Below are positions 1,489-46,875 of a stretch of DNA of 54,416 bases, piece after piece. The notes under the pieces were generated by a model. That model did no database searches, was not told the origin of the DNA, and was given only the letters and a program-made list of their open reading frames with translations. The translations under genes and the position numbers were made by a program. Numbering within the stretch: the first letter of the stretch is position 1; each line of letters starts with the position of its first letter. The stretch spans positions 1-54,416 of the forward strand of contig CAZEHW010000001.1 in the NCBI GenBank assembly GCA_964511865.1. The letters are read 5' to 3'. This stretch comes from an uncultured Hyphomicrobiales bacterium. GTDB taxonomy: Bacteria; Bacteroidota; Ignavibacteria; Kapaibacteriales; UBA2268.

Positions 1489-1716
1489 TCATTCAGAGCG
1501 AAACGCAGTGGAGCGAAGAATCCAGAAAAAGAAGAACTGGATTCCTCACTGCGTTCGGAATGACAAAAAATAAACCTGTCATCCTGAGCATGTCGAAGTA
1601 CGACTTCTCCCTTTTCCCTTTTCCCTTCTCCCTTTTCCCTTTTCCAGTCATCCTGAGCTTGTCGAAGGATGAACACACCCCGTCCCTGCGGGACACCCCT
1701 CTCGAGAGGGGATTTT
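1489..1716 (-). repeat. Composite modular repeat in the riboswitch-to-receptor leader
   Basis: Read in minus-strand sense, the order is: CCCCTCTCGAGAGGGG hairpin with GGGTGTGTTC (1674-1716); CCTTCGACAAGCTCAGGATGAC box (1647-1675); six GA heptads GGAAAAG/GGAGAAG (1605-1645); a second box CTTCGACATGCTCAGGATGAC (1578-1604); and a long imperfect hairpin GTCATTCCGAACGCAGTGAGGAATCC..GGATTCTTCGCTCCACTGCGTTTCGCTCTGAATGAC (1489-1565). Every module recurs elsewhere in the window. Confidence 0.85.
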
Positions 1717-1842
1717 ATTTTATTGGTTATAAAAACATTTTTCATAACGCATCTCCTACGGAATAATTAAACATAATTATTACCGTTGAATTAGCTTGTT
1801 TTTGGAGAAAATACGTTTTTTTATGTGAGAAATTATGTACCA

Positions 1843-1950
1843 TTTTCCCTACGCCGGCATTACCCGGATCAGGTTCAAAGAGTGTTATCTCAGCCTCGCA
1901 ATATTTTCTCCTCGGATTCATCATCCGGGCGAAGCACCTCCAACGTCTAA
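1843..1950 (-). promoter_or_regulatory. TPP (thiamine pyrophosphate) riboswitch aptamer
   Basis: The minus strand reads GGAGGUGC..CUUCGC..GCGAGGCUGAGAUAACACUCUUUGAACCUGAUCCGGGUAAUGCCGGCGUAGGGAA. This matches the conserved THI-element cores: GGxGUGC at 1934-1941, CUGAGA at 1888-1893, CCUGAUC at 1867-1873, and UAAUGCCxGCGUAGGGAA ending at 1845. CUUCGC/GCGAGG can form P3. It lies upstream of the TonB receptor on the same strand. Confidence 0.85.
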
Positions 1951-2266
1951 TACGAAATTAAAACATTTTTTTGGTTTTTCAAAATGTTTAAATAAGTAAA
2001 AGACTGGCAATTATTACAATAGATTAAGTTAGAATATTTTTATAAACCTTTTCGTATAATGTTTACTATTATGCCTAATAACAGTATAAGTGAAATTATG
2101 ATTCAAATTTTCTGCATATGTATTTTAATGATTTTGAAAAATTTATTCTTGTTTTTTATAAAAATTCTTGAATAAATGATTAATTGACTTAACTAACTAA
2201 AATATTTTGTAATTTTGAAGAAATATAGACTGAAATCAAAACATCTTTTAAATAAAAAATAATGTT

Positions 2267-4243
2267 ATGAAAAGATATTATTATTCAAATACTATTGTAA
2301 ATTTTATTAAAGATTCTAAAAATGAAATTCTGGGTTCACTTTCTCAACATAATGAGTTTAGTTTAGAACAGACACAAAGATTTGCTTGGACACAGGAAAT
2401 TGATATATTAAAAGTAATATTACAAAATTATTCAGGCTCAATTTATTTTGAGTATTCTATCCCAAGAATGGGGCGAAGAATTGATGTTATTCTGATTATT
2501 CAAAATGTAATATTCGTATTAGAATTCAAAATAGGTGAAAAAGAATTTTTATTGAGCTCTCTTGATCAAGTTTGGGATTATGCTCTTGATTTAAAATACT
2601 TCCATGAAACAAGTCATGACAATGTAATTGCACCAATATTGATTTCGACAGAAGCAAAAAACGTTGAATATAGTATTATCTCAACATCTCATAATGACAA
2701 TCTTCTATTTCCAATAAAGACCAACTGTGATTTACTTAAAGAAGTAATCGATAATGTTCTCCTGTTTTCTGATGATGAAACCATTGATCCTGAATATTGG
2801 GTCAGAGGAAAATATTCTCCAACACCAACAATTATTGAAGCTGCGATGGCTTTATATAACAACCATTCAGTTGCAGAGATATCAAGAAGCGATGCTTCTG
2901 CTATTAATTTAAATGAGACAAGTAATGCTATTTCTGAAGTAATTGAAAAAGCAAAAGTTAATAATCAAAAAGTCATCTGCTTTGTTACTGGAGTACCAGG
3001 GGCAGGAAAAACTTTAGTAGGTCTAAATATTGCAACAAAGCATCTAGACAAAGAGAAAAATACAACAAGTGTTTTTCTTTCTGGAAATGGACCTTTAGTT
3101 GCTATATTAAGAGAAGCACTTACCAGAGATAAAGTAAAAAGAATTAAAGAAAATGGTAATAAAATCAAAAAAGGTGAAGTATTAAGGGAAGTTAAAATGT
3201 TTATCCAGAATGTTCATCATTTCAGAGATGAGTGTTTAATTGATTTTACTAATCCACCCTTTGATCATGTTGCCATTTTTGATGAAGCTCAGCGTGCTTG
3301 GAATAAAACTCAAACAGCAAACTTTATGAAACGCAAAAAAAGTGTCCCTAATTTCACTTATTCAGAACCTGAGTTTTTGATTTCTTGCATGGATAGGCAT
3401 ATTGATTGGGCGGTTATTATTTGTCTTGTTGGAGGTGGTCAGGAAATAAATACAGGTGAAGCAGGAATTAGCGAATGGATAGATTCTTTAAATCGTTCTT
3501 TCCCTCAATGGCATGTTTATGTGTCTTCAAGGTTGACTGATAGTGAATATGATGCTGGTACTGTTCTTAAAAAACTCGAAACAAGGAAAAATATTTTTAA
3601 AAAAGAAGAATTCCATTTAGCAGTTTCAATACGTTCTTTTAGAGCTGAGCATCTATCTTCCTTGATAAAAAACATTCTTGATTTAAATATTCAAAATGCA
3701 AAAGAAGATTTAGCTCGAATAAAAGAAAAATATCCAATTGTAATAACTCGAAATTTGAATAATGCTAAAATATGGCTTAAAGAAAAAGCGAGAGGAAGCG
3801 AAAGATATGGAATAATTGTTTCTTCTGAAGCTCAAAGGCTGAAACCTCATGCAATAGACGTTAAATCACCTGTGAACCCTATCCATTGGTTCTTAAATGG
3901 CAAGGAAGATGTTCGGTCTTCTTATTATCTTGAAGATGTTGCTACTGAATTTCATGTTCAAGGTTTAGAATTAGATTGGGCTTGCGTTACCTGGGATGCG
4001 GATTTTAGATATTCCACAAATGGCTGGAGATATTTCTCTTTTGTTGGGGATAGGTGGAATAATATTAAAAAAGAAGAAAGAAAACAATATTTAAAAAATT
4101 CATATAGGGTTTTACTCACAAGAGCGAGGCAAGGAATGATAATAGTTGTTCCTGAAGGTGTTGATGAAGATACAACAAGAAATCCTACTTTTTATGATTT
4201 AACCTTCAATTATTTAAAAGATATTGGTTTTGATATTATCTAA
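2267..4243 (+). CDS. PD-(D/E)xK nuclease-like N-domain fused to a P-loop SF1-type helicase/ATPase (DUF2075-like)
   Basis: 658 aa. The N-terminal segment [19 protein letters not shown] carries the D..ExK pattern (D73, E86, K88). Walker A is GVPGAGKT (2990-3013) and Walker B is IFDEAQ (DEAQ at 3281-3292). The C-terminal [16 protein letters not shown] resembles UvrD/SF1 motif VI. Confidence 0.7.
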
Positions 4244-4997: not shown

Positions 4998-5010
4998 TTT
5001 AGCAATGGCT

Positions 5011-5047
5011 CTCTTTTCCCTTCTCCCTTTTCCCTTTTCCTTCCTTC
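5011..5047 (-). repeat. GA-heptad block (purine strand = sense strand)
   Basis: The minus strand reads GGAAGGAAAAGGGAAAAGGGAGAAGGGAAAAGAG. It fills the spacer between the stop of 5047..6642 and the ATG at 4997. Confidence 0.8.
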
Positions 5048-6642
5048 TATCTAACATACTTACTCCTCCAAAAAGATTCTTCCATATTGGGTTCCAGTTT
5101 CTTAAATTCAGGTGCAACATCTTTGAAAAATTGCTTCGGATTTAATATTAGTTTTGAAAGCATCAAAGGATTTTCATTTTCCGTCCATTCCTTTCTCATC
5201 CATTCAATGTAATATCCCTTGCTTTCGAGGAAAAATTCATAGTCCTGAGTTTCGTCCGGTAGTGTGTAATTGATTAAGTATTCATCCCCCGGGAGTGTTG
5301 CAAGAGTTTGGAAATTATTCGTTAACTCTTTAAATGCCTTTTTATCATGTAAATTTTCCTTAATGACATAAGACGGTTGAATCCTGATTGGTTGAACTTC
5401 TTCAATATCATTTGCAAGTGCCAAGTAATCGAGTCTCCAAAGTCCTTTGGCCAGTTCAAGTCGTAGTTTACAGTCGCCCTGAATGTTTTTGTTTAATTTT
5501 AATAATTGAATATCAGTAGAAATCGGACCTAACTCAAAATATTCTCCGATATACTCCCAATTTCCCTTTTCATCCTGAATACAAACCTTAATACCACCGA
5601 GAACTTCTTTAGAGCCATATACACTTTTCATAAAGCTCCCATCATCTCTTTCCAGCATTGCAAAATATTCTCCTGCAGAATTGCCCATATATCCTAATGT
5701 GCTGTAGAAGATGAATGTTGTCATCAGGGTTTGTCTGAATGCAAGAATTATTCCCTTATCTCCCGCAGGTAAATCTTTGAAATCAACTTCGATAATTTCT
5801 TTTTTCGCCAAATCATTTGAATCAGCCGGACTGAACCTCTGATTATTATCAAATTTAATAAGTTTATCAGTTATTAAACCTTCTTCTGCTTCAACAGAAT
5901 TTGGAGAAATAATGGCATCTGTTTTGTAATATTTTTCTTCATTCCCGGCAAATACTCTGCTTTTTTCTGATTTCGGAACTGCAAGTATATCAGCATATCT
6001 TACGACATGAGTTTCCAGAGCTTCGTTTTTCATCTTTAGCAATAAATTGCCATTATCCGCTTTTGCAAAATAAAGAGCATCAATATCCTTATCCTCTAAA
6101 CTCGGAGCTATTGAACCTGAAAAACCTTCTGCCTGCAATTGCATCTCTTCTCCATTCGAAGCATAAAATGTAGGACATGACCCAAAACAGGATTTTGGAT
6201 TAAATATACAATAGACAGTTAACCCTAATGAAGCACCGGTTACTAAAGCCATAGTAATTATTGAAGGATTAGGATTCATCTCATTTGTTTCGACCAAAGC
6301 AATCTCTTTAATGGCTATTGTAAAATCATCTTTTTTGATAAGATTTCTGTTTGCATCAAAAAGTGCTCCGTAACCGGTAATAACAGAATCCCCGTCAAGT
6401 ATTTTCCAATCTTTCATTATGTAAACAGTTGCATCCTTCATGTGAAGTTTAAAAATATTTTCTTCAATATTTTCAAAATCATTTTTTACCTCTTTGAAAG
6501 CAGTAGGTTTGTCTTCAGGTTTAAATGTATATCTGGTATAGCTTGGAGGTCTGCTGCAAGAAAACAAAAGAACGGCAAACAAAATAATGATTCCCATTTT
6601 ATGTATGCTATGCATGAATAAATGCAAATTATATATTCTCAT
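5047..6642 (-). CDS. Hypothetical exported protein/lipoprotein, family not recognised
   Basis: 531 aa. The N-terminus contains LFAVLLFSCS, a lipobox, so Met16 at 6597 is a possible start. There is an internal hydrophobic helix followed by the Cys cluster YCIFNPKSCFGSCPTFY. Confidence 0.55.
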   Translation of the reverse strand: MRIYNLHLFMHSIHKMGIIILFAVLLFSCSRPPSYTRYTFKPEDKPTAFKEVKNDFENIEENIFKLHMKDATVYIMKDWKILDGDSVITGYGALFDANRNLIKKDDFTIAIKEIALVETNEMNPNPSIITMALVTGASLGLTVYCIFNPKSCFGSCPTFYASNGEEMQLQAEGFSGSIAPSLEDKDIDALYFAKADNGNLLLKMKNEALETHVVRYADILAVPKSEKSRVFAGNEEKYYKTDAIISPNSVEAEEGLITDKLIKFDNNQRFSPADSNDLAKKEIIEVDFKDLPAGDKGIILAFRQTLMTTFIFYSTLGYMGNSAGEYFAMLERDDGSFMKSVYGSKEVLGGIKVCIQDEKGNWEYIGEYFELGPISTDIQLLKLNKNIQGDCKLRLELAKGLWRLDYLALANDIEEVQPIRIQPSYVIKENLHDKKAFKELTNNFQTLATLPGDEYLINYTLPDETQDYEFFLESKGYYIEWMRKEWTENENPLMLSKLILNPKQFFKDVAPEFKKLEPNMEESFWRSKYVR

Positions 6643-6878
6643 ATTTGTTTTTTCGGTAAATTTAAACTAATATTTAGCATAAATTAAACAAAAAACAATT
6701 CTCTTTCAAATTATTTTTATATTTCAGATTTTTAAGAAAGTAATTATTTAAGTTTACATAGTTGATTTTCAAGTTTCTTGTTATATTTGAAATTTTAAGT
6801 AATTGACTTTGTCAAAATTTTAATAAAATTATTGCAAGTTATTCAGTACTTAATTTTTTTTATATTTTAGGTTGAAAT

Positions 6879-7217
6879 ATGGTAATACAAATATTCGGAA
6901 CAGTGAAATGCAAGGACACACAAAAAGCCATCCGTTTTTTTAAGGAACGGAAAATCCAGCCGCATTTTGTTGACCTTAAAGAAAAATCTGTTTCAAAAGG
7001 TGAACTTAAAAACATTTCCAGAGAAGTTCCTTTAGATGATCTGATTGACAGAGATTCAAAAGTATTCAAGCAAAAAGGACTTGAATTCATGGTTTTTGAT
7101 TTAGAAGAGACATTGCTGGAAAATCCTTTGCTTTTCAAAACTCCAATTGTCAGGCATGAGAAAAAAGCAACAATAGGTTACGAACCTGAAATTTGGAAAA
7201 AATGGTTAAAAGATTAA
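6879..7217 (+). CDS. ArsC/Spx-family thioredoxin-fold protein
   Basis: 112 aa. MVIQIFGTVKCKDTQKAIRFFKERKI..KTPIV fits the ArsC/Spx/YffB-type N-terminal Cys context and size. Confidence 0.65.
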   Translation: MVIQIFGTVKCKDTQKAIRFFKERKIQPHFVDLKEKSVSKGELKNISREVPLDDLIDRDSKVFKQKGLEFMVFDLEETLLENPLLFKTPIVRHEKKATIGYEPEIWKKWLKD

Positions 7218-7262
7218 ATTTAAAAATGCTATTTTTGAAATAAAAACTTTAGCAATTTAATT

Positions 7263-7904
7263 ATGAAACTAAATCAAAATACTTATTTGCTTGTTACAGT
7301 CGCATCTTTGATGTTAATATCAATTTTTGGATGCAGCACAGAGGATAAAAATTTGAATTTACCCAAATCGCCTCAGGATATTTCTCCGCTGATTATTGGA
7401 AAAAATATTCCTGATATGATGTTATCTGATATTTACGGAAATGCGGTTAATTTAAAAAAGATTATTTCTGAAAAACCGACCATACTATTTTTCTATCGGG
7501 GTATTTGGTGTATGTATTGCAATCAACAAATTTCACAGCTCCGGGAAATAAATCAGTTATTATCAGAAATGGGCTATCAGGTTATAGCTGTCAGTTCCGA
7601 CAAACTCTCAAAAAATATTGAGATGATACAAAAATACGAAGTCGAATTTCCGATTCTTTCAGACTCAACATTGTCAGGAGCCAAATCTCTTGGGATTGCC
7701 TATGATGCTTCTGAAATTTACAAGGACATGCTCTTGGTTCTCGAAGAAAATTCAGGAACTAATCATCATATTTTACCTGTTCCTGCTGTGTTTATTCTGA
7801 ATCAGGAAGGTACAATCATTTTTGAATATATTAATCCTGATTTTAAAATTAGAATTTCCCCTGAACTGTTAATTAGTGCGGCAAAGTTTGCTTATGAACA
7901 ATAA
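7263..7904 (+). CDS. Peroxiredoxin-like (AhpC/TSA redoxin family) lipoprotein
   Basis: Lipobox LISIFGCS. The redoxin motif is FFYRGIWCMYCNQQISQL. Confidence 0.7.
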   Translation: MKLNQNTYLLVTVASLMLISIFGCSTEDKNLNLPKSPQDISPLIIGKNIPDMMLSDIYGNAVNLKKIISEKPTILFFYRGIWCMYCNQQISQLREINQLLSEMGYQVIAVSSDKLSKNIEMIQKYEVEFPILSDSTLSGAKSLGIAYDASEIYKDMLLVLEENSGTNHHILPVPAVFILNQEGTIIFEYINPDFKIRISPELLISAAKFAYEQ

Positions 7905-7995
7905 ATATTTTTATAATTAATTAGTAAATTTACTAAGTACTCGATAAGCTATAGAACTTTAAAAACTTTAAAACTTTATACTTTAAAACTAAGAC

Positions 7996-8766
7996 ATGAT
8001 TGAAATAAAAAATTTATATAAATCTTTTGGCGAAAAGGCAGTTCTTAAGGGTGTCAGTCTTACCATTCCCGATGGCTCTGCAAAATGTATCATCGGCAAA
8101 TCGGGATGTGGAAAAAGTGTATTATTAAAGCATATTGTCGGTTTGCTCGAACCCGATGAAGGTGAAGTATTAGTTGACGGTAAAAGAGTACAGGACCTCG
8201 ATAACGACGATATTTTTGAAATGAGAAAACAGATTGGTTTTGTATTTCAGGGCTCGGCACTATTCGATTCATTAAATGTTTTTGAGAATGTAGTCCTTGG
8301 CTTATATGAGCATGGCAATAGAAACGAAATTGAATTAGAAAAAGAAGCCATACGCGTACTTTCAGCAGTGGGCTTGCTCCCCGAAAAAGATTCCAATTCA
8401 GACTTTGAAAAAGAATGGCAAATACTAAAGTATAAAAAACCTGCCGACCTTTCAGGCGGTATGAGAAAAAGAGTTGGTGTCGCCCGTGCATTAGTTGGAA
8501 GTCCCAACTACATTTTTTACGATGAACCAACTACTGGATTAGACCCTGTGAACTCCGAACAAATTGACCGGCTTATCGCTGACCTTTCAAAAAAACTCAA
8601 TGTAACATCAATTGTTATCACACACGACATGTTTTCAGTCTTTAGAATAGCAGACGATGTTGCTATGCTTGACGACGGGATTGTCAGTTTCGAAGGAAAG
8701 CCCGATGAATTTATCAAATCCGACAATCCTGCTGTCAGGGAATTTTTAGAAAGATACAAAGTTTGA
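7996..8766 (+). CDS. ABC transporter ATP-binding protein, MlaF-like
   Basis: Walker A GKSGCGKS, signature LSGGMRKRVGVARAL, Walker B IFYDEPTTGLD. No cognate permease gene is adjacent. Confidence 0.8.
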   Translation: MIEIKNLYKSFGEKAVLKGVSLTIPDGSAKCIIGKSGCGKSVLLKHIVGLLEPDEGEVLVDGKRVQDLDNDDIFEMRKQIGFVFQGSALFDSLNVFENVVLGLYEHGNRNEIELEKEAIRVLSAVGLLPEKDSNSDFEKEWQILKYKKPADLSGGMRKRVGVARALVGSPNYIFYDEPTTGLDPVNSEQIDRLIADLSKKLNVTSIVITHDMFSVFRIADDVAMLDDGIVSFEGKPDEFIKSDNPAVREFLERYKV

Positions 8767-12052: not shown

Positions 12053-13315
12053 ATGAAATGTATTTTAAAAATAATTATTTTTCTATTTGGGAGTAGCTTG
12101 GTCTTATATGCTCAGCTAACACTTGAAACCTGTCAGGAAAAAGCATTGGCGAATTATCCCTTAATTAAACAATTTGATTTAATAAAATTATCTGAAAGTT
12201 ACAATCTTTCAAATGCCGACAAAGCATATTTCCCGCAATTAGCTATTAGTGCAAAGGCAACTTATCAATCTGATGTTGTTGAAATTCCTGTTGACCTTCC
12301 GCTGTTTAAGTTCGATGTTCCTGCAAAAGACCAGTATCAGGTAGCCGCCGAAATCAGTCAGGTATTGTGGGATGGAGGTGGAATCAGTGCTCAAAAAAGT
12401 TTAATTCAATCATCATCAGATATTGAAAAACAAAAACTTGAAGTTGACTTATATTCTTTAAAAGACAGAATTAATCAGTTGTTTTTTGGTATCCTTCTAA
12501 TTAACGAGCATTCAAAAAGAATTGATGATTTACAAAAAGAATTGCAGACAAATCTTGAAAGGATTTCATCATTAAAAAACAATGGAGTAGCAACACAATC
12601 TGACATTGATGTCATTCAGGTCGAAATAATTAATACAAAACAAAAGCAAACTGAATTGATTGCAAATAAAAACGCTTTTTTAAAGATGCTTTCTATAATG
12701 ATAGGAGAAGAGATTTCAGAGAATACTGAATTAGAAAAACCTGAACTAAATTCTGATATGACATTTTCTGATAATAACATGAGACCGGAATTAATACTAT
12801 TTGAAACCCAGGGAAATTTGTTCTTGAATCAGTTGGATATTATTGATGCAGGAACTATGCCGAAAATTGGATTATTTTTCCAAGGCGGATATGGCAGACC
12901 CGGATTTAATATTTTAAAAAATGAATTCCAACTATTTTATATTGGAGGTATCCGGTTTTCATGGAATTTGAGTGCTTTTTATTCCAAAAGCAACAGCTAT
13001 GAACTAATAAAGACCAATCAGAATTCCGTGAATTTACAAAAAGAAACTTTTCTTTTCAATAATAATCTCAGGACAGAACAGCAAAAAATTGAAATTGAGA
13101 AACTGAAGAATTTAATTCAAAATGATGATGATATAATAAAACTAAGAACAAATATCAAAAAGACATCTGAAGCTAAAGTTGAAAACGGGACATTATCGGT
13201 TAGTGATTTGGTTAGGGATATAAACAATGAGAATTTTGTCAGATTGGACAAAGCAGTACACGAAATTCAATTGTTAATTGCAATTTATAATTATAAGTAT
13301 TTAGTTAATGAATAG
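12053..13315 (+). CDS. TolC-like outer-membrane efflux protein
   Basis: 420 aa with a signal peptide. Position, size and coiled repeat structure fit an OEP next to HlyD/ABC genes. Confidence 0.75.
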   Translation: MKCILKIIIFLFGSSLVLYAQLTLETCQEKALANYPLIKQFDLIKLSESYNLSNADKAYFPQLAISAKATYQSDVVEIPVDLPLFKFDVPAKDQYQVAAEISQVLWDGGGISAQKSLIQSSSDIEKQKLEVDLYSLKDRINQLFFGILLINEHSKRIDDLQKELQTNLERISSLKNNGVATQSDIDVIQVEIINTKQKQTELIANKNAFLKMLSIMIGEEISENTELEKPELNSDMTFSDNNMRPELILFETQGNLFLNQLDIIDAGTMPKIGLFFQGGYGRPGFNILKNEFQLFYIGGIRFSWNLSAFYSKSNSYELIKTNQNSVNLQKETFLFNNNLRTEQQKIEIEKLKNLIQNDDDIIKLRTNIKKTSEAKVENGTLSVSDLVRDINNENFVRLDKAVHEIQLLIAIYNYKYLVNE

Positions 13316-13578
13316 TAGTCGTTAGTCGACAGTCGACAGATGGAAGAGAGCAGACAGGAATTCTTAATTTTTAAGTTTTTATGTTAACTTTGAGATCTTT
13401 GTGTTAAAAATATTTTTTGAAACCCATTACACAGAGTTGCACAGAGAAATCACAGAGATACACAGAGAGAGAAATAGGAGAATGGAGAAAGGAAAAAGGA
13501 GAAGGGAAAAACGGATGACAGATAACCGAAAACGGATAACGAATTGAAAATTTATGTATAAATAATTTATAGAATAAA
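13313..13578 (+). repeat. Short-period repeat spacer (TAGTCGT/CAGTCGA, CACAGAG, GGAGAAG, CGGATAA words)
   Basis: The spacer starts on the TAG stop. The TAGTCGT TAGTCGA CAGTCGA.. block and the GGAGAAT GGAGAAA GGAAAAA GGAGAAG GGAAAAA CGGATGA CAGATAA CCGAAAA CGGATAA block (from 13477) sit in the same 7-nt register, 161 nt apart. Confidence 0.85.
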
Positions 13579-14478: not shown

Positions 14479-14667
14479 AACAGTGAAACGGAGGAAGGGA
14501 AAAGGGAGAAGGGAAAAAGGAGAAGGGATTGAAAATAGTTTTAAACTTTGAGTTCTTTGTGAAAATTCTTTGTGTTAAGAATATTTGTAGAGAAGAATTA
14601 TTACACAGAGGATTTCCAATCCCATAGGGGTTGAATGTTTTTAGAAAAAAGAATTTTAAATTAAAAA
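14476..14667 (+). repeat. Short-period repeat spacer with a GA-heptad block and a CTTTGAGTTCTTTGTG motif
   Basis: AAATGAA ACAGTGA AACGGAG GAAGGGA AAAGGGA GAAGGGA AAAAGGA GAAGGGA begins on the TGA stop. Confidence 0.85.
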
Positions 14668-15573
14668 ATGATTTCTGTAAAAAATATCAGCAAAAAATAC
14701 GGCAAAGTTCAGGCACTGGACGATGTCAGTTTTGAAGTTGAAAAAGGAGAGATTTTCGGATTAATAGGTCCTGACGGTTCCGGCAAAACTACTCTGTTCA
14801 GAATTCTTACTACTTTGCTCCTGGCTGACACCGGAACGGCAATTGTTGATGGTCTGGATGTTGTTAAGGATTACAAGGCAATAAGGAAATGTATTGGTTA
14901 TATGCCCGGCAGATTCTCGCTTTATCAAGACCTGACAGTCAAAGAAAACCTCGAAGTTTTTGCTACATTATTTAATACAACAATAGAAGAAAACTATTAT
15001 TTAATTAAAGACATATATTCGCAGATAGAACCATTCAAAAACAGAAGGGCAGGAGCTTTGTCAGGCGGAATGAAGCAAAAGCTTGCATTGAGTTGTGCTT
15101 TGATTCATAAGCCGGTCGTTTTATTCTTGGATGAACCGACTACAGGTGTTGACCCTGTTTCGAGAAAAGAGCTTTGGGCTATGCTTAAAAAACTCAAGCT
15201 CGAAGGAATCAGTATTGTTGTTTCTACTGCTTATATGGATGAAGCAAGTTTGTGCGATAGAGTTGCACTTATGTCTCAGGGCAAATTTATGAAAGTTGAC
15301 TCTCCTAAAAATATAGTAAACCAATACAGCAAAATTATATGGGGAGCAAAAAGTAATAAAATGTCAAAACTTCTGACAGATTTAAGAAACAATCCTGACA
15401 TTGAAACAAGCTTTACATTTGGTGACTCACATCATATCACAATTGCAAATAATCAACTTAAAATTGATGTTCTGCAAGAATATCTGGAAAATTTGGGACA
15501 TAAAGATGTTTTTGTAAATCCTATTGCGGCAGGCATTGAGGATTGCTTTATGGAATTAGCGGAAGTTAGTTGA
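14668..15573 (+). CDS. ABC transporter ATP-binding protein (first half of a YbhF-like pair)
   Basis: Walker A GPDGSGKTT, signature LSGGMKQKLAL, Walker B LFLDEPTTGVD. Confidence 0.9.
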   Translation: MISVKNISKKYGKVQALDDVSFEVEKGEIFGLIGPDGSGKTTLFRILTTLLLADTGTAIVDGLDVVKDYKAIRKCIGYMPGRFSLYQDLTVKENLEVFATLFNTTIEENYYLIKDIYSQIEPFKNRRAGALSGGMKQKLALSCALIHKPVVLFLDEPTTGVDPVSRKELWAMLKKLKLEGISIVVSTAYMDEASLCDRVALMSQGKFMKVDSPKNIVNQYSKIIWGAKSNKMSKLLTDLRNNPDIETSFTFGDSHHITIANNQLKIDVLQEYLENLGHKDVFVNPIAAGIEDCFMELAEVS

Positions 15574-15704
15574 GAGTTTTGAGTTTTAAGTTTTAAGTTG
15601 AGAGTTGAGAGTTGGAGAAGGGAGAAGGGAAAATTTAAAATGTAAAATGTAGAATGTAAAATGTAAAATGTAGAATGTAGAATGTAAAATGTAGAATGTA
15701 ACAG
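15565..15704 (+). repeat. Phase-locked heptanucleotide array (19 units, four graded words)
   Basis: From 15572: GAGAGTT TTGAGTT TTAAGTT x2 GAGAGTT x2 GGAGAAG x2 GGAAAAT TTAAAAT, then GTAAAAT/GTAGAAT x8, then GTAACAG. There is no phase slip. Confidence 0.95.
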
Positions 15705-15811
15705 ATTGAAGTCAGGAAATAAACTTAGCTGAACTTAGCGAAAAACTTTGAGTACTTTGCGTTTAAATAATTAGTTATACAAAGGACATTAGAAAAATAG
15801 AATATAGAACA

Positions 15812-16549
15812 ATGAATGTAATTAAAGCAGATAAATTGACAAAAAGGTTCGGGAAATTCACGGCTGTGGATGGGATTTCTTTCGATGTCGAAGAAGGAGA
15901 GATATTCGGCTTTCTCGGTGCCAACGGAGCAGGAAAGACCACAGCTATGAGAATGCTCTGCGGTCTTAGCAAACCCACTTCAGGTAAAGGGACAGTTGCA
16001 GGATTCGATATTTATAAACAGTCCGAAAAAGTTAAAGCAAGTATTGGATACATGAGTCAGAAATTTTCTATGTACGAAGATTTGAAAGTCTGGGAAAACA
16101 TCAAATTATATGCCGGGATATATGGAATTCCCGGAAAGGAGATTAACACTAAAATTGATGAGCAATTGAAAAGATTAGGATTTGAAAGTCAGAGAGATAC
16201 TTTGGTAAAATCTTTGCCTTTAGGTTGGAAGCAAAAACTTGCATTTTCTGTTGCAATTGTTCATGACCCGAAAATTGTTTTTCTCGATGAACCAACCGGT
16301 GGAGTTGACCCTGCAAGCAGACGGCAGTTTTGGGAATTAATCTACCAGGCATCCGACAGAGGTATTACTGTTTTTGTAACTACTCACTATATGGATGAAG
16401 CTGAGTATTGCAATCGGGTTTCTATTATGGTGGACGGAAGAATTGAAGCGATGGACACACCGGGGAATCTGAAGAATAAGTATAATGCAAATAGTATGGA
16501 CGAGGTATTTCATAAATTAGCAAGAAAAGCAGTAAGGATAGGAGATTAA
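15812..16549 (+). CDS. ABC transporter ATP-binding protein (second half of a YbhF-like pair)
   Basis: Walker A GANGAGKTT, Walker B VFLDEPTGGVD, H-loop TTHYMDEAE. Confidence 0.9.
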   Translation: MNVIKADKLTKRFGKFTAVDGISFDVEEGEIFGFLGANGAGKTTAMRMLCGLSKPTSGKGTVAGFDIYKQSEKVKASIGYMSQKFSMYEDLKVWENIKLYAGIYGIPGKEINTKIDEQLKRLGFESQRDTLVKSLPLGWKQKLAFSVAIVHDPKIVFLDEPTGGVDPASRRQFWELIYQASDRGITVFVTTHYMDEAEYCNRVSIMVDGRIEAMDTPGNLKNKYNANSMDEVFHKLARKAVRIGD

Positions 16550-17657: not shown

Positions 17658-17678
17658 TGAGTTTAATAATTTTAAAAA

Positions 17679-17755
17679 GTTATCCGTTTTCGGTTGTCGG
17701 TTATCCGTTTTCGCTGTTCATTATACATTATACATTTTACATTATACATTATTAA
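17679..17755 (+). repeat. Phase-locked heptanucleotide array (11 units)
   Basis: GTTATCC GTTTTCG GTTGTCG GTTATCC GTTTTCG CTGTTCA TTATACA TTATACA TTTTACA TTATACA TTATTAA. It ends 2 nt before the ATG at 17758. Confidence 0.95.
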
Positions 17756-17757
17756 TC

Positions 17758-24227: not shown

Positions 24228-25064
24228 TTGTCGGGGAAATCTATGGATATAACAACAAAATTAAGGTTAAATAACGGCAAAGAAATACCTGCTCTTGGTT
24301 TAGGTGTTTACTTAAGCAAACCCGGGAAAGAGACATACGAAGCTGTCCGCTATGCTTTGGATATTGGCTACAGGCATATAGATACTGCGGCTCTTTATGC
24401 TAACGAGGAAGATGTTGGCAAAGCAATAAGGGACAGTGGAATACCCAGAGTAGAAGTATTTGTTACGACAAAAGTCTGGAATTCCGACCAGGGTTATGAT
24501 AGTACAATGAAAGCATTTTATAAAAGTTTAAGGAAACTTAATTTTGATTATATTGATTTGTATTTGATACATTGGCCCCAACCAAAAACAAGATGCGATA
24601 CATGGAGAGCTTTGATTAAGATTTATGATGAAAAAAGAGCAAGTTCTATTGGTGTAAGTAATTATACTATTAGGCATATGGAGGAAATTCTTCATGGTTC
24701 ACCCTTCAAACCGCTTATTAATCAGGTTGAGTTCAGTCCATATCTTTTCCAAAGAGACATTCTGGCATATTGCACAAGAAGAAATATTTTGGTTGAAGCA
24801 TATACTCCATTAGTAAGGGGTAAAAAATTTGGAGACCCGAAATTAAAATCTCTTGCTGAAAAGTATTCGAAATCACCTGCACAAATTTTGATAAGATGGG
24901 CATTGCAGGTTGGTGTGATTGTCCTGCCAAAATCGGTACATCCGGAAAGAATAAAAGAAAATGCTGATGTATTTGATTTTGAAATTTCTGATGATGATAT
25001 GGAACTTCTCGAAAACTTTAACGAAAATTACAGGGTTGCATGGGACCCAACGAAGATTGAGTGA
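24228..25064 (+). CDS. Aldo/keto reductase (DkgA-like)
   Basis: GYRHIDTAALYANEE, LYLIHWP, IGVSNY and the C-terminal IPKS-like LPKSVHPERIKEN. The likely ATG start is at 24243. Confidence 0.85.
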   Translation: MSGKSMDITTKLRLNNGKEIPALGLGVYLSKPGKETYEAVRYALDIGYRHIDTAALYANEEDVGKAIRDSGIPRVEVFVTTKVWNSDQGYDSTMKAFYKSLRKLNFDYIDLYLIHWPQPKTRCDTWRALIKIYDEKRASSIGVSNYTIRHMEEILHGSPFKPLINQVEFSPYLFQRDILAYCTRRNILVEAYTPLVRGKKFGDPKLKSLAEKYSKSPAQILIRWALQVGVIVLPKSVHPERIKENADVFDFEISDDDMELLENFNENYRVAWDPTKIE

Positions 25065-25130
25065 TTAATTGTTAATGGTTAATTGTCAATTGTTAATGAA
25101 GATAGGAATAAGGGATTGAATTCTTAATTG
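25062..25130. repeat. Heptad array TAATTGT/TAATGGT/CAATTGT.. between convergent genes
   Basis: GAGTGAT TAATTGT TAATGGT TAATTGT CAATTGT TAATGAA GATAGGA ATAAGGG ATTGAAT TCTTAAT. The array spans both stop codons (25062-25064 on + and 25124-25126 on -). Confidence 0.9.
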
Positions 25131-26985: not shown

Positions 26986-27873
26986 ATGAAAAAGCACATA
27001 CAAATAGTCATCTCAGCAATTCTTTTCTTTTGCTTTTCATTTTTAACTTATGGACAAACTCCATTCTGGAAATTGGAAAAAGATTCTATGAATTTAGCAA
27101 TTCTTGAACTTGACTATCAAACTCACGAATTCATACAAGGGCATTTTTCAGTTCATAAACCTTGTGATGATTGTGACAAAGATAGCTTGCCATTCTTAAT
27201 AGACGACGTGATGAATGGTGATATAGGATACATAAAATTTCTATATTTTGAAAATAACGAACAAGTATTCCATGGAAGTGTTATTTTTTTGGGAACTGGA
27301 AAAATAAAATTTCCACCTTCATTTTTTCCAAAAGACTCTTTTAGATTTTCCACAGGAATTTGTTCGCCACCTCAATCTATCAAGTACTATAAAATTTTAT
27401 TTTACTCAATTGGTGATTATAGCGATTTTAATGGTAACATAGCATGGCAAGGAATTCAAAATTTGGAAATAATAAAAGATTTTGCAAAAAATCCATATAG
27501 AATTGGTATATATTTATATCCTCCTGCTGTTGGGCCTTTTGAACCTGAAAATGCTAGATGGATTATATTTGTATACCAAGGCAAATTAACTCCTAATAGT
27601 GTCGATGATGTTAATATGGGAATTACAAATATTTCTCCCAACCCCTTCTCAGAATCCACAACAATACAATATTATCTTAATGACCCTGCTTTTGTCAGTA
27701 TTAATATTTACAATTCTTTTGGGAATAAACAAATAAATTCAGTTAAAGAATTTCGTGACAGAGGAGAACAGGAATTTGTTTTTGACGGCATGAATTATCC
27801 GTCAGGATTGTATTTTTATACAATTCAAATTGGGGATAAGTTCGTTAGCGGAAAAATGGCTTTAATTAAATGA
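26986..27873 (+). CDS. Hypothetical secreted protein with T9SS C-terminal sorting domain
   Basis: Signal peptide present. The CTD is ISPNPFSESTTIQYYL..SGLYFYTIQIGDKFVSGKMALIK. Confidence 0.65.
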   Translation: MKKHIQIVISAILFFCFSFLTYGQTPFWKLEKDSMNLAILELDYQTHEFIQGHFSVHKPCDDCDKDSLPFLIDDVMNGDIGYIKFLYFENNEQVFHGSVIFLGTGKIKFPPSFFPKDSFRFSTGICSPPQSIKYYKILFYSIGDYSDFNGNIAWQGIQNLEIIKDFAKNPYRIGIYLYPPAVGPFEPENARWIIFVYQGKLTPNSVDDVNMGITNISPNPFSESTTIQYYLNDPAFVSINIYNSFGNKQINSVKEFRDRGEQEFVFDGMNYPSGLYFYTIQIGDKFVSGKMALIK

Positions 27874-27908
27874 AAAATGAATAGTGAATAGTGAATAGTG
27901 AATAATAG
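27868..27908 (+). repeat. Heptad array AAATGAA x2, TAGTGAA x3, TAATAGT
   Basis: The first unit contains the TGA stop of the preceding gene. Confidence 0.9.
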
Positions 27909-27941
27909 TTTTTAACTTTTCGAAAGTTAATTGGAAAAATA

Positions 27942-28271
27942 TCAGCTTAGTATTAAATATATCGAAACGGCTCCTAAAAATATTCCTGCTCCTTGCTTGA
28001 TTGATATTGATTCACCAAAAAGAAACATACCTAAAACAACAATAAACAGCATCGAGGCAATCGTTAATACAGGTGTCAGTTTGCTAACGTCAAAATATCG
28101 TAATAGATATACCTGAAGGAAAAATGTACAGATATATAACACTGCTCCCAACGAAATAAATACATAGAATTCCTTTTGCTGAAGCGTGAAGAAGGTGCCT
28201 TTTTTCAATGACACCTGAGCTACAGCTGTCAGCATTATAGTCAAAAATATTAATAGAAATTTTAAATCCAT
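27942..28271 (-). CDS. Small EamA/SMR-like membrane protein (ArnE/ArnF-like flippase-subunit candidate)
   Basis: 109 aa with 4 TM helices. It is the last gene of the GT2-DUF2142 operon. Confidence 0.55.
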   Translation of the reverse strand: MDLKFLLIFLTIMLTAVAQVSLKKGTFFTLQQKEFYVFISLGAVLYICTFFLQVYLLRYFDVSKLTPVLTIASMLFIVVLGMFLFGESISIKQGAGIFLGAVSIYLILS

Positions 28272-28382
28272 AGCTTTCCGTTTTCCGTTATCCGTTTTTT
28301 AGTTCTTTAGTTTTTTTGTTTTTTAGTTCTTCTGTCTTTCCGTCTTTTACCTAATAGTCTAATAGTCTAACAGCCTAAATCA
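28272..28382 (-). repeat. Short-period (8 then 7 nt) array filling the whole intra-operon spacer
   Basis: The minus strand reads TGA TTTAGGCTG TTAGACTA TTAGACTA TTAGGTAA AAGACGGA AAGACAGA AGAACTAA .. AAACGGA TAACGGA AAACGGA. It runs from the stop at 28380 to the ATG at 28271. Confidence 0.85.
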
Positions 28383-31013: not shown

Positions 31014-31107
31014 TATTAGCTGAAAAATTACAAAAAAATTGTTGTATCAGTTTATTCTACTGACCAAGTATAAAAATACTAAAATACAAAAATATATTCT
31101 TTTAGTC

Positions 31108-31300
31108 AATAATTGTTGATTGTTAATTGTTAATGGTAATGAAGAAGGGAGTTCAGCAGACGGCAGACGGCAGACAGTAAGAAGTGAGAAGGTATCCTTC
31201 CAAAAGCTCAGGATGACAAGGGAAAGCAGGAGGAAAGATGGGATGTTAGGTAGGTTTTTACCGAATTTATCCTTCGGCAAGCTCAGGATAGCGAGAAGTA
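31108..31300 (+). repeat. Composite repeat (TGTTAAT heptads, GCAGACG heptads, two CxAAGCTCAGGAT boxes flanking a GA-rich core)
   Basis: GCAGACG GCAGACG GCAGACA GTAAGAA GTGAGAA GGTATCC TTCCAAA AGCTCAG GATGACA AGGGAAA are in one register. The second box, CCTTCGGCAAGCTCAGGATAGC, is at 31270-31296. Confidence 0.85.
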
Positions 31301-35478: not shown

Positions 35479-36336
35479 TTAATCGAAAATATATTTTATG
35501 CCAAATTGGGCATTACCGGCAAACCCATCATCTTTGACTTTATCGTAATCATCATTGTAATGCATGAGGTAAATCTTCTTTTTCCATTTATCGGGTAAAG
35601 TTCTTAGTTCATCATATGATGCATGAACAGGATTTTTTGTAAACGAACAGTCGTGGAAAATAATCTCAGCTTTATCGGCATATATATCTAATAATGATTT
35701 ATCGAATTTTGTGTCGCTTGTATACATAACCCGCTTATCTATCATCAAGCCATAGGAAATGAATGCCTGTTTTTGCGTTTTGGCTGAATCGGGAATGTGA
35801 TTAGTCCCAAATAATTCTATATCAATGCCTTTGTATTTTATTTTATATTTTGTTCTGTCTTTTGAAGAAATTGGCTTTGCTAATAGAATATCGAAATAAT
35901 CAGTTATATTTAATCTTTTATTCTTAATTCTTTCGTTCCATTCCAGACCGCCTTTGAGAGAGTAATTCCAAAGTATATCCTTGTATTCTTTCGTAGTTAT
36001 TAATTTAAGCTTCGGATTGTTAGGAAAATTTGGACCTGAATATCTTTTATTAAGAGCCAAATATTCAACACCGCCGATGTGGTCAGCGTGACTGTGTGTA
36101 GGAAGAAATGCTTCAATATCCAATGGGCTCAGACCTAAATGCTTTTCAAGGGAGATAGGGGCATTATAGCCAAAATCAACGAGGATATGTGCATCTCCTT
36201 TTACTATAATAATGTTGTTATTATATAGTAATTGAGAAAATGCAGTACCAGTACCAAGAAAAATTATTTCAAGGTTCCCATCATTTTGTAGCTTAAGTTT
36301 ATTTTTAATTTTATATATTTTCATAATTATCCTCAA
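35479..36336 (-). CDS. MBL-fold metallo-hydrolase
   Basis: The HxHxDH motif is THSHADHIGG, with a later H and D. Confidence 0.75.
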   Translation of the reverse strand: MRIIMKIYKIKNKLKLQNDGNLEIIFLGTGTAFSQLLYNNNIIIVKGDAHILVDFGYNAPISLEKHLGLSPLDIEAFLPTHSHADHIGGVEYLALNKRYSGPNFPNNPKLKLITTKEYKDILWNYSLKGGLEWNERIKNKRLNITDYFDILLAKPISSKDRTKYKIKYKGIDIELFGTNHIPDSAKTQKQAFISYGLMIDKRVMYTSDTKFDKSLLDIYADKAEIIFHDCSFTKNPVHASYDELRTLPDKWKKKIYLMHYNDDYDKVKDDGFAGNAQFGIKYIFD

Positions 36337-36605: not shown

Positions 36606-36684
36606 TTCTCGCAAAGCACGCAAAGAATACAGAGTAACAGAGAAATAACTATTAACCATTAACAATTAACAATTGACCATTCAC
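36606..36684 (-). repeat. Heptad array overlapping the hutI 3' end
   Basis: The minus strand reads AATGGTC AATTGTT AATTGTT AATGGTT AATAGTT ATTTCTC TGTTACT CTGTATT CTTTGCG TGCTTTG CGAGAAA. The first four units encode the last hutI codons (..NGQLLIVNG*). Confidence 0.85.
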
Positions 36685-38019: not shown

Positions 38020-38125
38020 GAACACACCCAGTCCCTGCGGGACACCCCTCTCAAGAGGGGATTTATACTCACTTTTCATCCCCTTTTTGTTTTATCCCCT
38101 CTCGAGAGGGGCAGGGGTGTGTTCT
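38020..38125. repeat. Inverted pair of the GAACACACCC..CCCCTCTCGAGAGGGG module
   Basis: 38020-38064 reads GAACACACCCAGTCCCTGCGGGACACCCCTCTCAAGAGGGGAT. 38095-38125 reads TCCCCTCTCGAGAGGGGCAGGGGTGTGTTC in inverted orientation. A near-identical copy is at 1674-1716. Confidence 0.9.
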
Positions 38126-38294: not shown

Positions 38295-38432
38295 AATCCC
38301 GCCGGGATATTTACCGTTTTTTATTTTCTGTACTACCATAATGTAATCCCTATCGGGATATTTTCTGTTTTTGTTTCACTTTTTCGCTGTTTCACGTTTC
38401 ACTGTTTCACGTTTCGTTGTTTCACATTTCAC
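38295..38432 (-). repeat. Hairpin words (AATCCCGCCGGGATATT, AATCCCTATCGGGATATT) plus a GTGAAAC short-period array
   Basis: The minus strand reads CGTGAAA TGTGAAA CAACGAAA CGTGAAA CAGTGAAA CGTGAAA CAGCGAAAAA GTGAAAC. It starts 13 nt after the cdsA stop. Confidence 0.85.
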
Positions 38433-38445
38433 GAAAAACTGACGA

Positions 38446-40926: not shown

Positions 40927-41010
40927 ATAGTTTAGTCGGTAGTCGATAGTCGAAAGTTATTAGTCGTTAGTCGTCAGTCGTCCTTCGACAAGCTCAGGTT
41001 GACAGTCGTT
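40920..41010 (+). repeat. Heptad array running into a CGACAAGCTCAGG box in the same register
   Basis: GTTGAGT GAATAGT TTAGTCG GTAGTCG ATAGTCG AAAGTTA TTAGTCG TTAGTCG TCAGTCG TCCTTCG ACAAGCT CAGGTTG ACAGTCG. It starts on the TGA stop. Confidence 0.9.
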
Positions 41011-41011
41011 T

Positions 41012-41061
41012 AAAAAAAAAGAAGTGAAGAATCCCAATCGTATTTCTTCACTTCTTTTTTT
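41012..41061. terminator. Bidirectional rho-independent terminator
   Basis: A9-AGAAGTGAAGAA-(12 nt loop)-TTCTTCACTTCT-T6: a perfect 12-bp stem with an A-run on one side and a T-run on the other. It lies between convergent genes. Confidence 0.8.
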
Positions 41062-41122
41062 AGTTCTTTAGTTCTATGGTTCTATAGTCTTTCTGTATGC
41101 TGTCTGCAAAAATTCCTAATTA

Positions 41123-46731: not shown

Positions 46732-46741
46732 CACATGAAGA

Positions 46742-46840
46742 AATTAGGAATTAGGAATTAGGAATTAGGAAATATAGAAACAACATGAAAACAACAAATA
46801 ATACATTGACCATTAACCATTAATAATTAACAATTATCAT
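46742..46840 (+). repeat. AGGAATT x4 heptads and TTGACCATTAACCATTAATAATTAACAATT words
   Basis: Starts 10 nt after the TGA stop of the WD40 gene. Confidence 0.85.
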
Positions 46841-46875
46841 TTTAAAAACCTTTTCAAAATAATTTAAATTACATT

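Follow-up and report, generated by a model that had tools for sequence, protein, structure and literature searches.

A compound heptanucleotide repeat between two ATPase genes of an efflux operon, in a lineage rich in heptamer arrays

Between positions 15565 and 15704 of the metagenomic contig CAZEHW010000001.1, 20 consecutive heptanucleotides lie on the + strand in the 238-nt spacer between two half-ATPase genes of an efflux operon. The window analysed here is the entire contig (54,416 nt; 33% G+C; 8.8 kb intergenic). In our view the array is probably a compound heptanucleotide simple-sequence repeat, belonging to a known class, that slippage has both created and resized. The slippage origin is well supported by the comparison with related species, in which the array changes size by whole units. 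The repeat class is already known; what is new here is a lineage that is unusually rich in heptamer arrays and in which their sequence is kept between species. The main rival explanations weighed below (neutral filler, a sequence-specific or quadruplex element, a copied cassette) overlap with the favoured one as regards the origin.

Two abutting heptamer arrays form the repeat

Read from 15565, units 1 to 7 are GTTAGTT GAGAGTT TTGAGTT TTAAGTT TTAAGTT GAGAGTT GAGAGTT, and units 8 to 20 are GGAGAAG GGAGAAG GGAAAAT TTAAAAT GTAAAAT GTAGAAT GTAAAAT GTAAAAT GTAGAAT GTAGAAT GTAAAAT GTAGAAT GTAACAG. From 15572 onwards these are exactly the units listed in an earlier prediction made from the sequence alone (the original prediction). 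When the array was compared with itself, 0.80 of the positions matched at a shift of 7 nt, 0.66-0.69 at shifts of 14, 21 and 28 nt and 0.21-0.39 at other shifts. Tandem Repeats Finder (TRF) recovered the same blocks as the unit-by-unit reading. The 140 nt comprise 57 A, 43 T, 39 G and a single C.

The original prediction described one unbroken register along which the words grade from GAGAGTT to GTAAAAT, with neighbouring units one to three substitutions apart. Since a tandem array has no intrinsic phase, a register is informative only between similar neighbouring words. At the junction 15613/15614, GAGAGTT and GGAGAAG differ at six of the seven positions, and still at four in the best rotation, so that no phase can be defined across it. 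The feature therefore consists of two arrays that abut, one at 15565-15613 and the other at 15614-15704. Everywhere else neighbouring units do differ by 0-3 substitutions, and the grading holds within 15614-15704 (GGAGAAG > GGAAAAT > TTAAAAT > GTAAAAT/GTAGAAT), but not for the step from GAGAGTT to GGAGAAG. The words GAAGTTA GTTGAGA, which had been placed in the same register upstream, are 3 nt off. The true in-register unit is GTTAGTT (15565-15571), which spans the final codons of the upstream ATPase gene together with the first base of its stop, although the TGA at 15571-15573 does lie inside the first AGTTGAG-type units, as had been proposed.

Three blocks can be told apart on the + strand. 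Block I (15565-15613) has seven units of the AGTT family (GTTAGTT, GAGAGTT, TTGAGTT and TTAAGTT); it overlaps the last two sense codons of ATPase gene 1 and supplies its TGA stop. Block II (15614-15634) is the purine-rich GGAGAAG GGAGAAG GGAAAAT, a member of a dispersed GGAGAAG/GGGAAAA family with the 14-nt super-unit GGAGAAGGGAAAA. Block III (15635-15704) consists of ten units (TTAAAAT, GTAAAAT/GTAGAAT and GTAACAG) and follows from block II by one or two substitutions per step. Downstream lies the conserved non-repeat leader of ATPase gene 2 (15705-15811, + strand), which holds the dispersed motif AAACTTTGAG..CTTTG.G..TAAA (recognised by eye; family D10).

The feature is not a CRISPR array, as already stated in the original prediction: its 7-nt units are contiguous, whereas CRISPR arrays combine repeats of about 24-48 nt with unique spacers of similar length. 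A repetitive extragenic palindromic (REP) or miniature inverted-repeat transposable element (MITE) was likewise rightly dismissed, the array having neither terminal inverted repeats nor a significant RNA fold on either strand, and similarity between loci being confined to the repeat blocks. The prediction had also set aside a single-unit microsatellite. There is indeed more than one word, but the array is essentially a microsatellite of the compound or interrupted kind.

Period-7 arrays are in excess on the contig and frequent in other bacteria

The period-7 autocorrelation that had been proposed as a check revealed a clear excess in the intergenic DNA of the contig over dinucleotide shuffles (z=+8.2), with periods 14 and 21 raised as well. 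By the same comparison, the coding DNA of the contig gave no period-7 signal. A uniform scan of the contig found 19 period-7 arrays covering 928 nt, against 0.6 arrays per block-wise dinucleotide-shuffled copy, which amounts to about 10% of the intergenic DNA. Periods 4-6 and 9-12 were near chance, and period 8 gave five arrays. Nearly all arrays are intergenic, and the few apparently coding ones sit at the over-extended ends of crude gene calls. Perfect 21-nt (three-unit) duplications were detected within arrays by TRF. The second case named in the original prediction, 17679-17755, is correct: it has 11 units and is separated by 2 nt from the ATG at 17758.

The preference for 7 nt is general. 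In 79 other loci of the operon, mostly from Bacteroidota (1.33 Mb), period-7 arrays cover 3560 nt, compared to 88, 423, 1219 and 661 nt for periods 5, 6, 8 and 9, respectively. A mixed control set of 120 unrelated metagenome contigs contained 28 period-7 arrays against 1-7 for each of the periods 4, 5, 8, 10 and 11. Out of 119 arrays, 94 lie outside crude gene calls and most others at gene ends. Array density, on the other hand, is 17 nt per kb in the window and 22 in the sister species L001 (see below), compared to 1.8-2.7 in the 79 relatives and the control set. The lineage of the window and L001 is therefore six to twelve times richer in arrays.

Unit number changes by whole units between related species

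The sister species L001 (JAZDIP01), a metagenome-assembled genome (MAG), shares 95% protein and 89% nucleotide identity with the window. Its orthologous spacer keeps the word order but has 12 units, against 20 in the window, and the alignment gaps of 28, 21 and 7 nt are all whole units. Block I has three units there (the 28-nt gap) and block III six (the gaps of 21 and 7 nt). A third lineage is represented by three independent assemblies (L081-L083, from ENA, Logan and JGI) that agree completely in this spacer; here 5-6 AGTT units are followed by about eight purine-rich units, and the GTAAAAT block is absent. As the block-wise counts in L001 and L081 differ in this way, the blocks expand and contract independently by whole units, and the differences in unit number that the original prediction had suggested looking for are confirmed between species. 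The exact protein of ATPase gene 2 is on record for this contig alone, and the junction pattern ATTAGCGGAAGTTAGTTGAGAG was absent from metagenome_contigs; the comparisons are therefore at the level of species only.

Because the array changes in size by 7 nt or multiples of it, we favour slipped-strand mispairing at replication as its source. Slippage would add or remove whole 7-nt units, and amplification of a mutated unit would most likely create a new word, which could give the graded series GGAGAAG > GGAAAAT > GTAAAAT. Unrelated blocks could also come to abut, as the AGTT words do against GGAGAAG. The array is one of a contig-wide population of arrays and part of the 7-nt bias across Bacteroidota and other bacteria.

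That the array was produced by a short-read metagenome assembler is barely credible. The contig does belong to a MAG, and a 140-nt repeat is near read and k-mer length. However, the same words occur in the orthologous array of L001, which is an independent MAG, and in the L081-L083 assemblies, and dozens of arrays are present in isolate genomes of Bacteroides and Prevotella. Judging from these sequences, the array is not an assembly artefact, its exact unit counts being those of the short-read assemblies.

It is also very unlikely that the array is a contingency locus, where changes in copy number would turn expression of the downstream ATPase on or off in the manner of classical phase variation. 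Upstream tandem repeats act in this way in some pathogens (reviewed in PMC4679880), and the unit number here does differ between species. Yet the conserved 107-nt leader lies between the array and the ATG, and the distance from the leader, including any promoter within it, to the start is unaffected by copy number. Moreover, the array is outside any reading frame, the arrays are identical in the three independent samples of the L081 lineage, and convergent spacers, which contain nothing that could be switched, have arrays too.

The array belongs to a known class of heptanucleotide repeats

The feature has the properties by which long simple-sequence repeats (LSSRs) are recognised. It is built head to tail from a unit within the range of 1-11 nt (period 7, 20 units, self-match 0.80), and such arrays are longer than expected by chance (19 versus 0.6; z=8.2). 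As expected for units that are not a multiple of three, they are non-coding, with the coding DNA devoid of a period-7 signal, and their length changes by whole units between relatives, as seen in the L001 gaps and the L081 block counts. Heptanucleotides are the commonest LSSR in most prokaryotic genomes according to Mrazek, Guo & Shah 2007, as cited in PMC4679880 and PMC4692102, where the conjecture that 7 nt matches the DNA polymerase contact is also quoted. With the heptanucleotide LSSRs our arrays share tandem 7-nt units, excess length, intergenic location, the preference for 7 nt, variability between close relatives and a proposed origin by slippage. They differ in that the richest genomes named in the published surveys are those of Burkholderia, Xanthomonas, cyanobacteria and actinobacteria and not of Bacteroidota, whereas here arrays reach about 17-22 nt per kb of contig and about 10% of intergenic DNA. 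They are also compound, with several words per run.

The original prediction knew of no formal description for bacteria of the Fibrobacteres-Chlorobi-Bacteroidetes (FCB) group. This does not hold, since MacGregor 2015 (PMC4679880) covers five Bacteroidetes: Flexibacter litoralis, Paludibacter, Gramella forsetii, Aequorivita and Elizabethkingia. In these, TAACTGA repeats, "other heptamer direct repeats" and "larger assemblages of heptamer repeats" were described in intergenic DNA. Relatives lack repeats at the same junctions, forward TAACTGA sets lie upstream of starts, and binders of the S1, Csp or CsrA type were proposed. Our literature search turned up no article devoted to the heptamer repeats of Bacteroides or Flavobacterium themselves.

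The arrays resemble the repeats described by MacGregor in being intergenic Bacteroidetes arrays with several heptamers per spacer, where the spacers of relatives are short and free of repeats. The likeness extends to placement, with forward sets before starts and reversed sets after stops; the window, L001, L081 and L040 (Perlabentimonas) hold TAACGGA-, TAACCGA- or TAACTGA-like units at such sites. In the window the TAACGGA/TAACCGA/AAACGGA family consists of one-mismatch variants of TAACTGA (13509-13543, 28277-28297(-) and 17683-17710(-)), and no exact TAACTGA tandem was found there. Forward TAACNGA-like units end 5-12 nt before start codons at 28277-28297(-) in the window, at 8071-8098 and 14803-14823(-) in L001, at 257-284 in L081 and at 8142-8225 in L040. 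In Perlabentimonas gracilis M08_MB, 12 such units (TAACYGA) precede the ATPase gene. A reversed set follows a stop codon, and these positions agree with the published description. The array at 15565-15704 differs in its words (AGTTGAG, GGAGAAG and GTAAAAT). In position, too, it is unlike the forward TAACTGA sets near starts: it begins at a stop codon, and 107 nt separate its end from the following ATG.

STRR heptamers of cyanobacteria have long been known (since about 1990), with the consensus words CCCCA(A/G)T, TT(G/T)GTCA and CAACAGT. The original prediction named them as the nearest analogue, and they are a fair analogue in kind, with tandem heptamers at many intergenic sites and several word families per genome. 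Tandem copies of the STRR1-3 consensus words, in the form given above, were found on neither strand of the contig. Moreover, the host of STRR repeats is a heterocystous cyanobacterium, whereas this contig encodes Por_Secre_tail (type IX secretion) proteins, a TonB receptor and other Bacteroidota-like (FCB) content. The nearest relatives are a MAG at 95% amino acid identity, followed by Fibrobacter and Bacteroidetes MAGs at no more than 68%. Together with the type IX sorting tails, they assign the organism to Bacteroidota or its vicinity, and not to the cyanobacteria.

A further likeness is to the G-rich heptamer repeats that Rehm 2015 (PMC4692102) examined as quadruplexes, GGGAATC in Xanthomonas and GGGGA(T/C)T in Nostoc, whose length and sequence vary between close Xanthomonas species. 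GGGAGAA/GGGAAAA has the same G3N4 layout, is intergenic and varies while the flanking genes stay. In contrast to those repeats, a single array of the contig, 1609-1639(-), has at least four G3 runs. It is a perfect G3N4 array and the sole three-tetrad G-quadruplex motif on the contig. The array at 15565-15704 has two GGG runs, compared to at least four with short loops in quadruplex-forming heptamer repeats.

Array sequence is kept between species

Spacers and arrays of the window and L001 are 88-96% identical, compared to 66% at fourfold-degenerate sites (n=675). The permease spacer that holds the second array (83 nt) is identical at 96 of 100 positions without any indel, the non-repeat leader 15705-15811 at 97 of 107, and the 238-nt ATPase spacer at 166 of 182 positions outside the gaps. 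Position-specific unit variants were kept between the two species. Copy number varied near stop codons, while arrays near start codons were held.

These data bear on the possibility that the arrays are neutral filler, that is, by-products of slippage in unconstrained intergenic DNA whose loops of more than about 3 nt escape mismatch repair. We regard this as possible but somewhat doubtful. It would account for the great diversity of words across loci, most of which were seen once, for the copy-number differences between sister species, and for the use of different words at one orthologous position: directly behind the stop codon of the outer-membrane factor gene, the first of the operon, TAGTCG words are found in the window and TTAATTG words in L001. 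It would also fit the general 7-nt bias and the pile-up of arrays at stop codons, where nothing constrains them (46 of 97 arrays abut a stop codon, versus 28.9 expected from random placement; z=5.1). Huang & Mrazek 2014 (PMC4060949) reported that units of at least 4 nt are not suppressed, possibly because mismatch repair is best at loops of 1-3 nt. However, the retained unit variants, the 100-nt spacer without indel and the identity of 88-96% against 66% at fourfold sites argue against pure neutrality. Neither the consistent orientation of the purine-rich family nor the exact sharing of words between loci would be expected of filler. The GGAGAAG/GGGAAAA 13-mer core recurs at 1604-1645(-), 5008-5048(-), 13471-13511, 14490-14529 and 53260-53318(-), and in each of the six window loci, as well as in two additional loci of L001, the family is on the sense strand relative to the adjacent gene. 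Unlinked loci of the window share exact words in 6 pairs, with 0.7 expected (P=0.0015).

The arrays could alternatively be sequence-specific platforms, whose word families would each offer tandem binding sites to a factor that covers about 7 nt (a cold-shock-domain, S1, RRM or DNA-binding protein) or, for GGGAGAA/GGGAAAA, G-quadruplexes, and which would regulate the flanking genes. We hold this to be unlikely. The limited vocabulary with exact sharing between loci, the conservation of word identity between species and the forward TAACNGA-like units shortly before starts, as reported for TAACTGA by MacGregor, would be expected of such platforms, as would the perfect G3N4 motif of 1609-1639(-) in a riboswitch leader. 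The quadruplex study of G-rich heptamers (PMC4692102) and reporter work in Nostoc suggesting that heptamer repeats affect expression (bioRxiv 10.1101/2022.06.06.494920) also point this way. Against this, many of the words are unrelated, the same words occur in both orientations, the GTAAAAT block goes from 0 to 10 units between relatives, and the array at 15565-15704 has only its two GGG runs. Within one mismatch, word sharing between the window loci was not significant, and by our own rough estimate TAACNGA-like units are only about 1.5 times as frequent as naively expected. We therefore do not claim a closed vocabulary.

Similar array segments recur at distant loci

Some arrays share not only words but also the order of their variant units, which suggests that array segments are sometimes copied between loci. 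The segments 13477-13510 and 53267-53300 have exactly the same order of variants (97% identity), and 13508-13549 corresponds to the inverted 17670-17711 (83%, same unit order). Each half of the second array is thus the reverse complement of an array further upstream in the operon, since its other half, 17708-17750, is complementary in this way to the block III segment 15646-15688 (81-91%). Predicted duplexes are accordingly strong, with -50.9 kcal/mol for 13508-13549/17670-17711 (shuffles -13.6±3.1) and -33.2 kcal/mol for the block III pair (shuffles about -13.6). Long-range RNA pairing between the operon arrays is nevertheless not supported, as none of the four window/L001 differences in the 13508/17670 pair is compensatory.

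One could take such copies as the sign of a dispersed or mobile cassette, in which transposition, template switching or ectopic recombination would carry arrays from locus to locus in either orientation, and the arrays would not grow in place. This appears distinctly improbable. Besides the shared unit orders, it would explain why three successive operon spacers share a purine block together with a AACTTTGAG..CTTTGTG motif, why a block of about 130 nt of arrays in B. timonensis is missing in close relatives, and why array-bearing spacers took up whole genes in L001 and L081. But terminal inverted repeats and target-site duplications are absent, similarity stops at the edges of the repeat blocks, Pfam scans revealed no transposase nearby, and the window/L001 differences in the array at 15565-15704 are whole-unit indels in place.

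A possible role as an unstructured RNA spacer

Conservation, strand bias and folding energies lead us to infer that the array, besides having the slippage origin favoured above, would act in cis as an RNA spacer, unstructured and poor in C, or as a binding platform. The array would be co-transcribed with the operon as a transcribed-strand spacer between two cistrons. As its words lack C and are not self-complementary, its RNA would be unstructured over a long stretch. The minimum free energy of the 140-nt array is -11 kcal/mol, compared to -23.8±5.4 for coding and -20.4±7.8 for other intergenic windows of equal length, and its centroid structure leaves every base unpaired; for most shorter arrays the energy is 0 to -2 kcal/mol. 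Among the 97 arrays in co-directional spacers, 90 have a non-zero G/C skew, and in 59 of these G exceeds C on the sense strand. Such RNA would keep the two cistrons apart, and ribosomes or single-strand-binding proteins could load or stand by on it. In this phylum, most genes are generally held not to rely on Shine-Dalgarno pairing. The stop-proximal part would be free to vary in copy number, while word identity would be held by selection and/or homogenisation within the array.

Several observations weigh against slippage followed by such a role. The low folding energy is an effect of composition (z is only -1.16 against the array's own shuffles), and the second array has more C than G on the sense strand. 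The occurrence of the same words in both orientations to transcription (GTAAAAT and ATTTTAC; TAACGGA and its complement) is a poor fit to a role that is sequence-specific and strictly at the level of RNA. Neither the shared unit order of 13477-13510 and 53267-53300 nor that of 13508-13549 and the inverted 17670-17711 is predicted by purely local slippage. Slippage also leaves the choice of a 7-nt unit unexplained, for which there is only the published DNA polymerase conjecture. The high identity of repeats between species could in part reflect within-array homogenisation and not selection. Finally, the block of about 130 nt in B. timonensis was gained or lost at only 8% synonymous divergence. 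In that species the junction (ABC2-permease) measures about 160 nt (of which about 130 nt are heptamer arrays, in an inverted pair), compared to 31 nt in B. cellulosilyticus and B. intestinalis, and fourfold sites among these Bacteroides species are 89-92% identical.

A bolder proposal, which we think quite unlikely, is that heptamer arrays, in this lineage and to a lesser degree throughout Bacteroidota, are selected cis-elements and not debris of slippage. They would replace tight translational coupling in operons, be conserved in nucleotide sequence between species, be copied between loci in either orientation and offer tandem landing sites to a single-strand-binding protein with a 7-nt footprint (a cold-shock-domain, S1 or RRM protein), by which each cistron would have its expression set. 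If so, the footprint of the protein would also explain the unit length.

While nothing is overturned by these findings, they offer material for further work: a lineage with about a tenth of its intergenic DNA in heptamer arrays, a conserved six-gene operon whose junctions are bare in some species and filled with arrays in others, and arrays that keep their sequence while synonymous sites have diverged by about one-third. The cultured Bacteroides pairs that differ by a whole array block make function testable in a group with established genetics. In cultured Bacteroides the arrays occur as inverted pairs, potentially long hairpins (L043 9770-9935 compared to 9905-9937 in L042, L045 and L048; L052 11040-11165). 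The pair in B. timonensis consists of AGCTACA (four copies) and TTGTAGC (six plus four copies), and that in B. salyersiae of TGCCAAT and ATTGGCA.

Operon setting of the array

The operon comprises six genes after a TetR gene and is of the ybhGFSR type: an outer-membrane factor (TolC), an HlyD-type adaptor, two ATP-binding cassette (ABC) ATPases and two ABC-2 permeases. ABC ATPase gene 1 (14668-15573, +) encodes the N-terminal half of a ybhF-like tandem ATPase and gene 2 (15812-16549, +) the C-terminal half, both with Pfam ABC_tran; in other taxa the two are one fused protein (P0002 and others). Gaps between the operon genes are 5-25 nt in most of the 26 listed loci, and in L084, an 86%-identical relative, the ATPase genes overlap by 4 nt and have no spacer. 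The window operon, on the other hand, has gaps of 263, 189, 238, about 0 and 100 nt, with heptamer arrays in every long gap. Since the other relatives have short gaps or overlaps, the long array-filled spacers are derived in the small clade of the window, L001 and L081; on this comparison of sequences, spacer and array arose in the ancestor of these three related lineages. Pfam scans of the 37 window proteins and of two proteins from related loci identified no dedicated repeat-making or repeat-binding enzyme.

Both gene insertions noted above lie in array-bearing spacers. In L001, a WD40 beta-propeller gene with a type IX secretion tail (6727-8073) is inserted between the HlyD and ATPase genes; its product is 27% identical to that of 45439-46731 in the window. 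In L081 a gene for a 183-aa protein of unknown function (2268-2819) is inserted between the second ATPase and the permease.

The operon spacers also contain other motifs. The dispersed motif AACTTTGAG..CTTTG(T/C)G..TAAA is present in three successive spacers (~13388-13420, 14543-14590 and 15737-15770) and is tandemly multiplied in L081 (~1320-1370); it is possibly an internal promoter or operator that has spread across the junctions by copying. Four copies of CACAGAG at a spacing of 10-11 nt, one helical turn and not 7 nt, are located at 13428-13468 and conserved in L001 (5680-5720), and a single copy is found in the next spacer (~14620). A near-complementary CTTTGTG motif lies upstream. The CACAGAG set could be an operator for the adjacent TetR regulator. 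Matches to sigma-70-type promoters inside the array are by-products of its A/T-rich words, and the scan does not model Bacteroidota promoters; they were not used.

Other arrays and dispersed elements on the contig

Within the operon, on the + strand, a TAGTCG-word array (13315-13343) begins at the stop codon of the outer-membrane factor gene. It is followed at 13471-13543 by a purine-rich block and a TAACNGA-like block (AAACGGA TGACAGA TAACCGA AAACGGA TAACGAA), 36 nt upstream of the HlyD-like gene, and a purine-rich array (14490-14529) lies 11 nt past the stop of that gene. The second array (17678-17757, +), in the spacer between permeases A and B, has reversed TAACSGA-like units at 17683-17710 (CCGTTTT CGGTTGT CGGTTAT) and, at 17719-17753, ATTATAC/ATTTTAC, the reverse complement of GTAAAAT-type words.

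Elsewhere on the + strand, arrays of TTAATTG words (25062-25099, in a convergent spacer) and of TTAGTCG words (40930-40990) begin at and 3 nt past a stop codon, respectively, and an array of GAATAGT words (27865-27911) overlaps one. Two arrays, with TTAATTG and then GCAGACG words, occupy the divergent spacer 31106-31185, and an ACCATTA/ACAATTA array at 36641-36688 is the reverse complement of the TTAATTG family. Two further arrays, of GAATTAG and ACCATTA words (46734-46842), lie after the stop of the gene for a WD40 protein with a type IX secretion tail. On the - strand, a purine-rich array at 5008-5048 lies immediately 3' of the stop of the gene 5047-6642(-), and AAACGGA TAACGGA AAACGGA units (28271-28300) end 5 nt before the ATG of the gene 27942-28271(-). 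The array 53260-53318(-) grades GGAAGAC > GGGAGAA > GGGAAAA and is the one with 97% identity over 34 nt to 13477-13510.

Period 8 was the sole other period in excess, the five arrays comparing with 0.6 expected. Period-8 and mixed 7/8 (15-nt) arrays were found at 28294-28328, next to the AAACGGA units, and at 38367-38433, 41059-41092 and 7955-7990, with the units GTTTTTTA, TGTTTCAC/GTTTCAC, TTTAGTTC and AACTTTAA.

The only Rfam match on the contig, where none was obtained in the spacers, is a thiamine pyrophosphate (TPP) riboswitch (RF00059, 67 bits) at 1828-1951(-), upstream of a TonB-dependent receptor gene (Plug domain). In the leader between them lies the purine-rich array 1599-1650(-), made of GGAAAAG/GGAGAAG with a perfect 21-nt super-period. 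This riboswitch-receptor leader of about 330 nt is dense with dispersed repeats (1480-1745), among them a hairpin element and two direct copies of CTTCGACA(A/T)GCTCAGGATGAC that flank the heptamer array.

A 21-nt motif, CTTCGACAAGCTCAGGATGAC, occurs seven times on the contig: at 1578-1598(-), 1647-1667(-), 31197-31217, 31272-31292, 40983-41003, 48258-48278 and 53239-53259(-). Five of the seven copies adjoin heptamer arrays. It was rejected as part of a composite with the heptamers, as it is found in at least 120 metagenome contigs (34-71% GC), generally not beside heptamers; we treat it as a separate, very widespread dispersed element. In those contigs it is usually present as an inverted pair, GTCATCCTGAGCTTGTCGAAGGATC ... 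GATCCTTCGACAAGCTCAGGATGAC, a potential long hairpin. Another dispersed intergenic element is represented by the 45-nt copies at 1671-1715 and 38020-38064, which are 96% identical (GAACACACCC.GTCCCTGCGGGACACCCCTCTC.AGAGGGGATTT) and contain two short palindromes each.

Two possible phage-defence or counter-defence genes, unrelated to the repeats, are also encoded on the contig. The gene at 2267-4243(+) encodes a Schlafen-group-3-like DNA/RNA helicase domain protein, and that at 35479-36324(-) a metallo-beta-lactamase-fold protein matching the anti-Pycsar Apyc1 family (111 bits).

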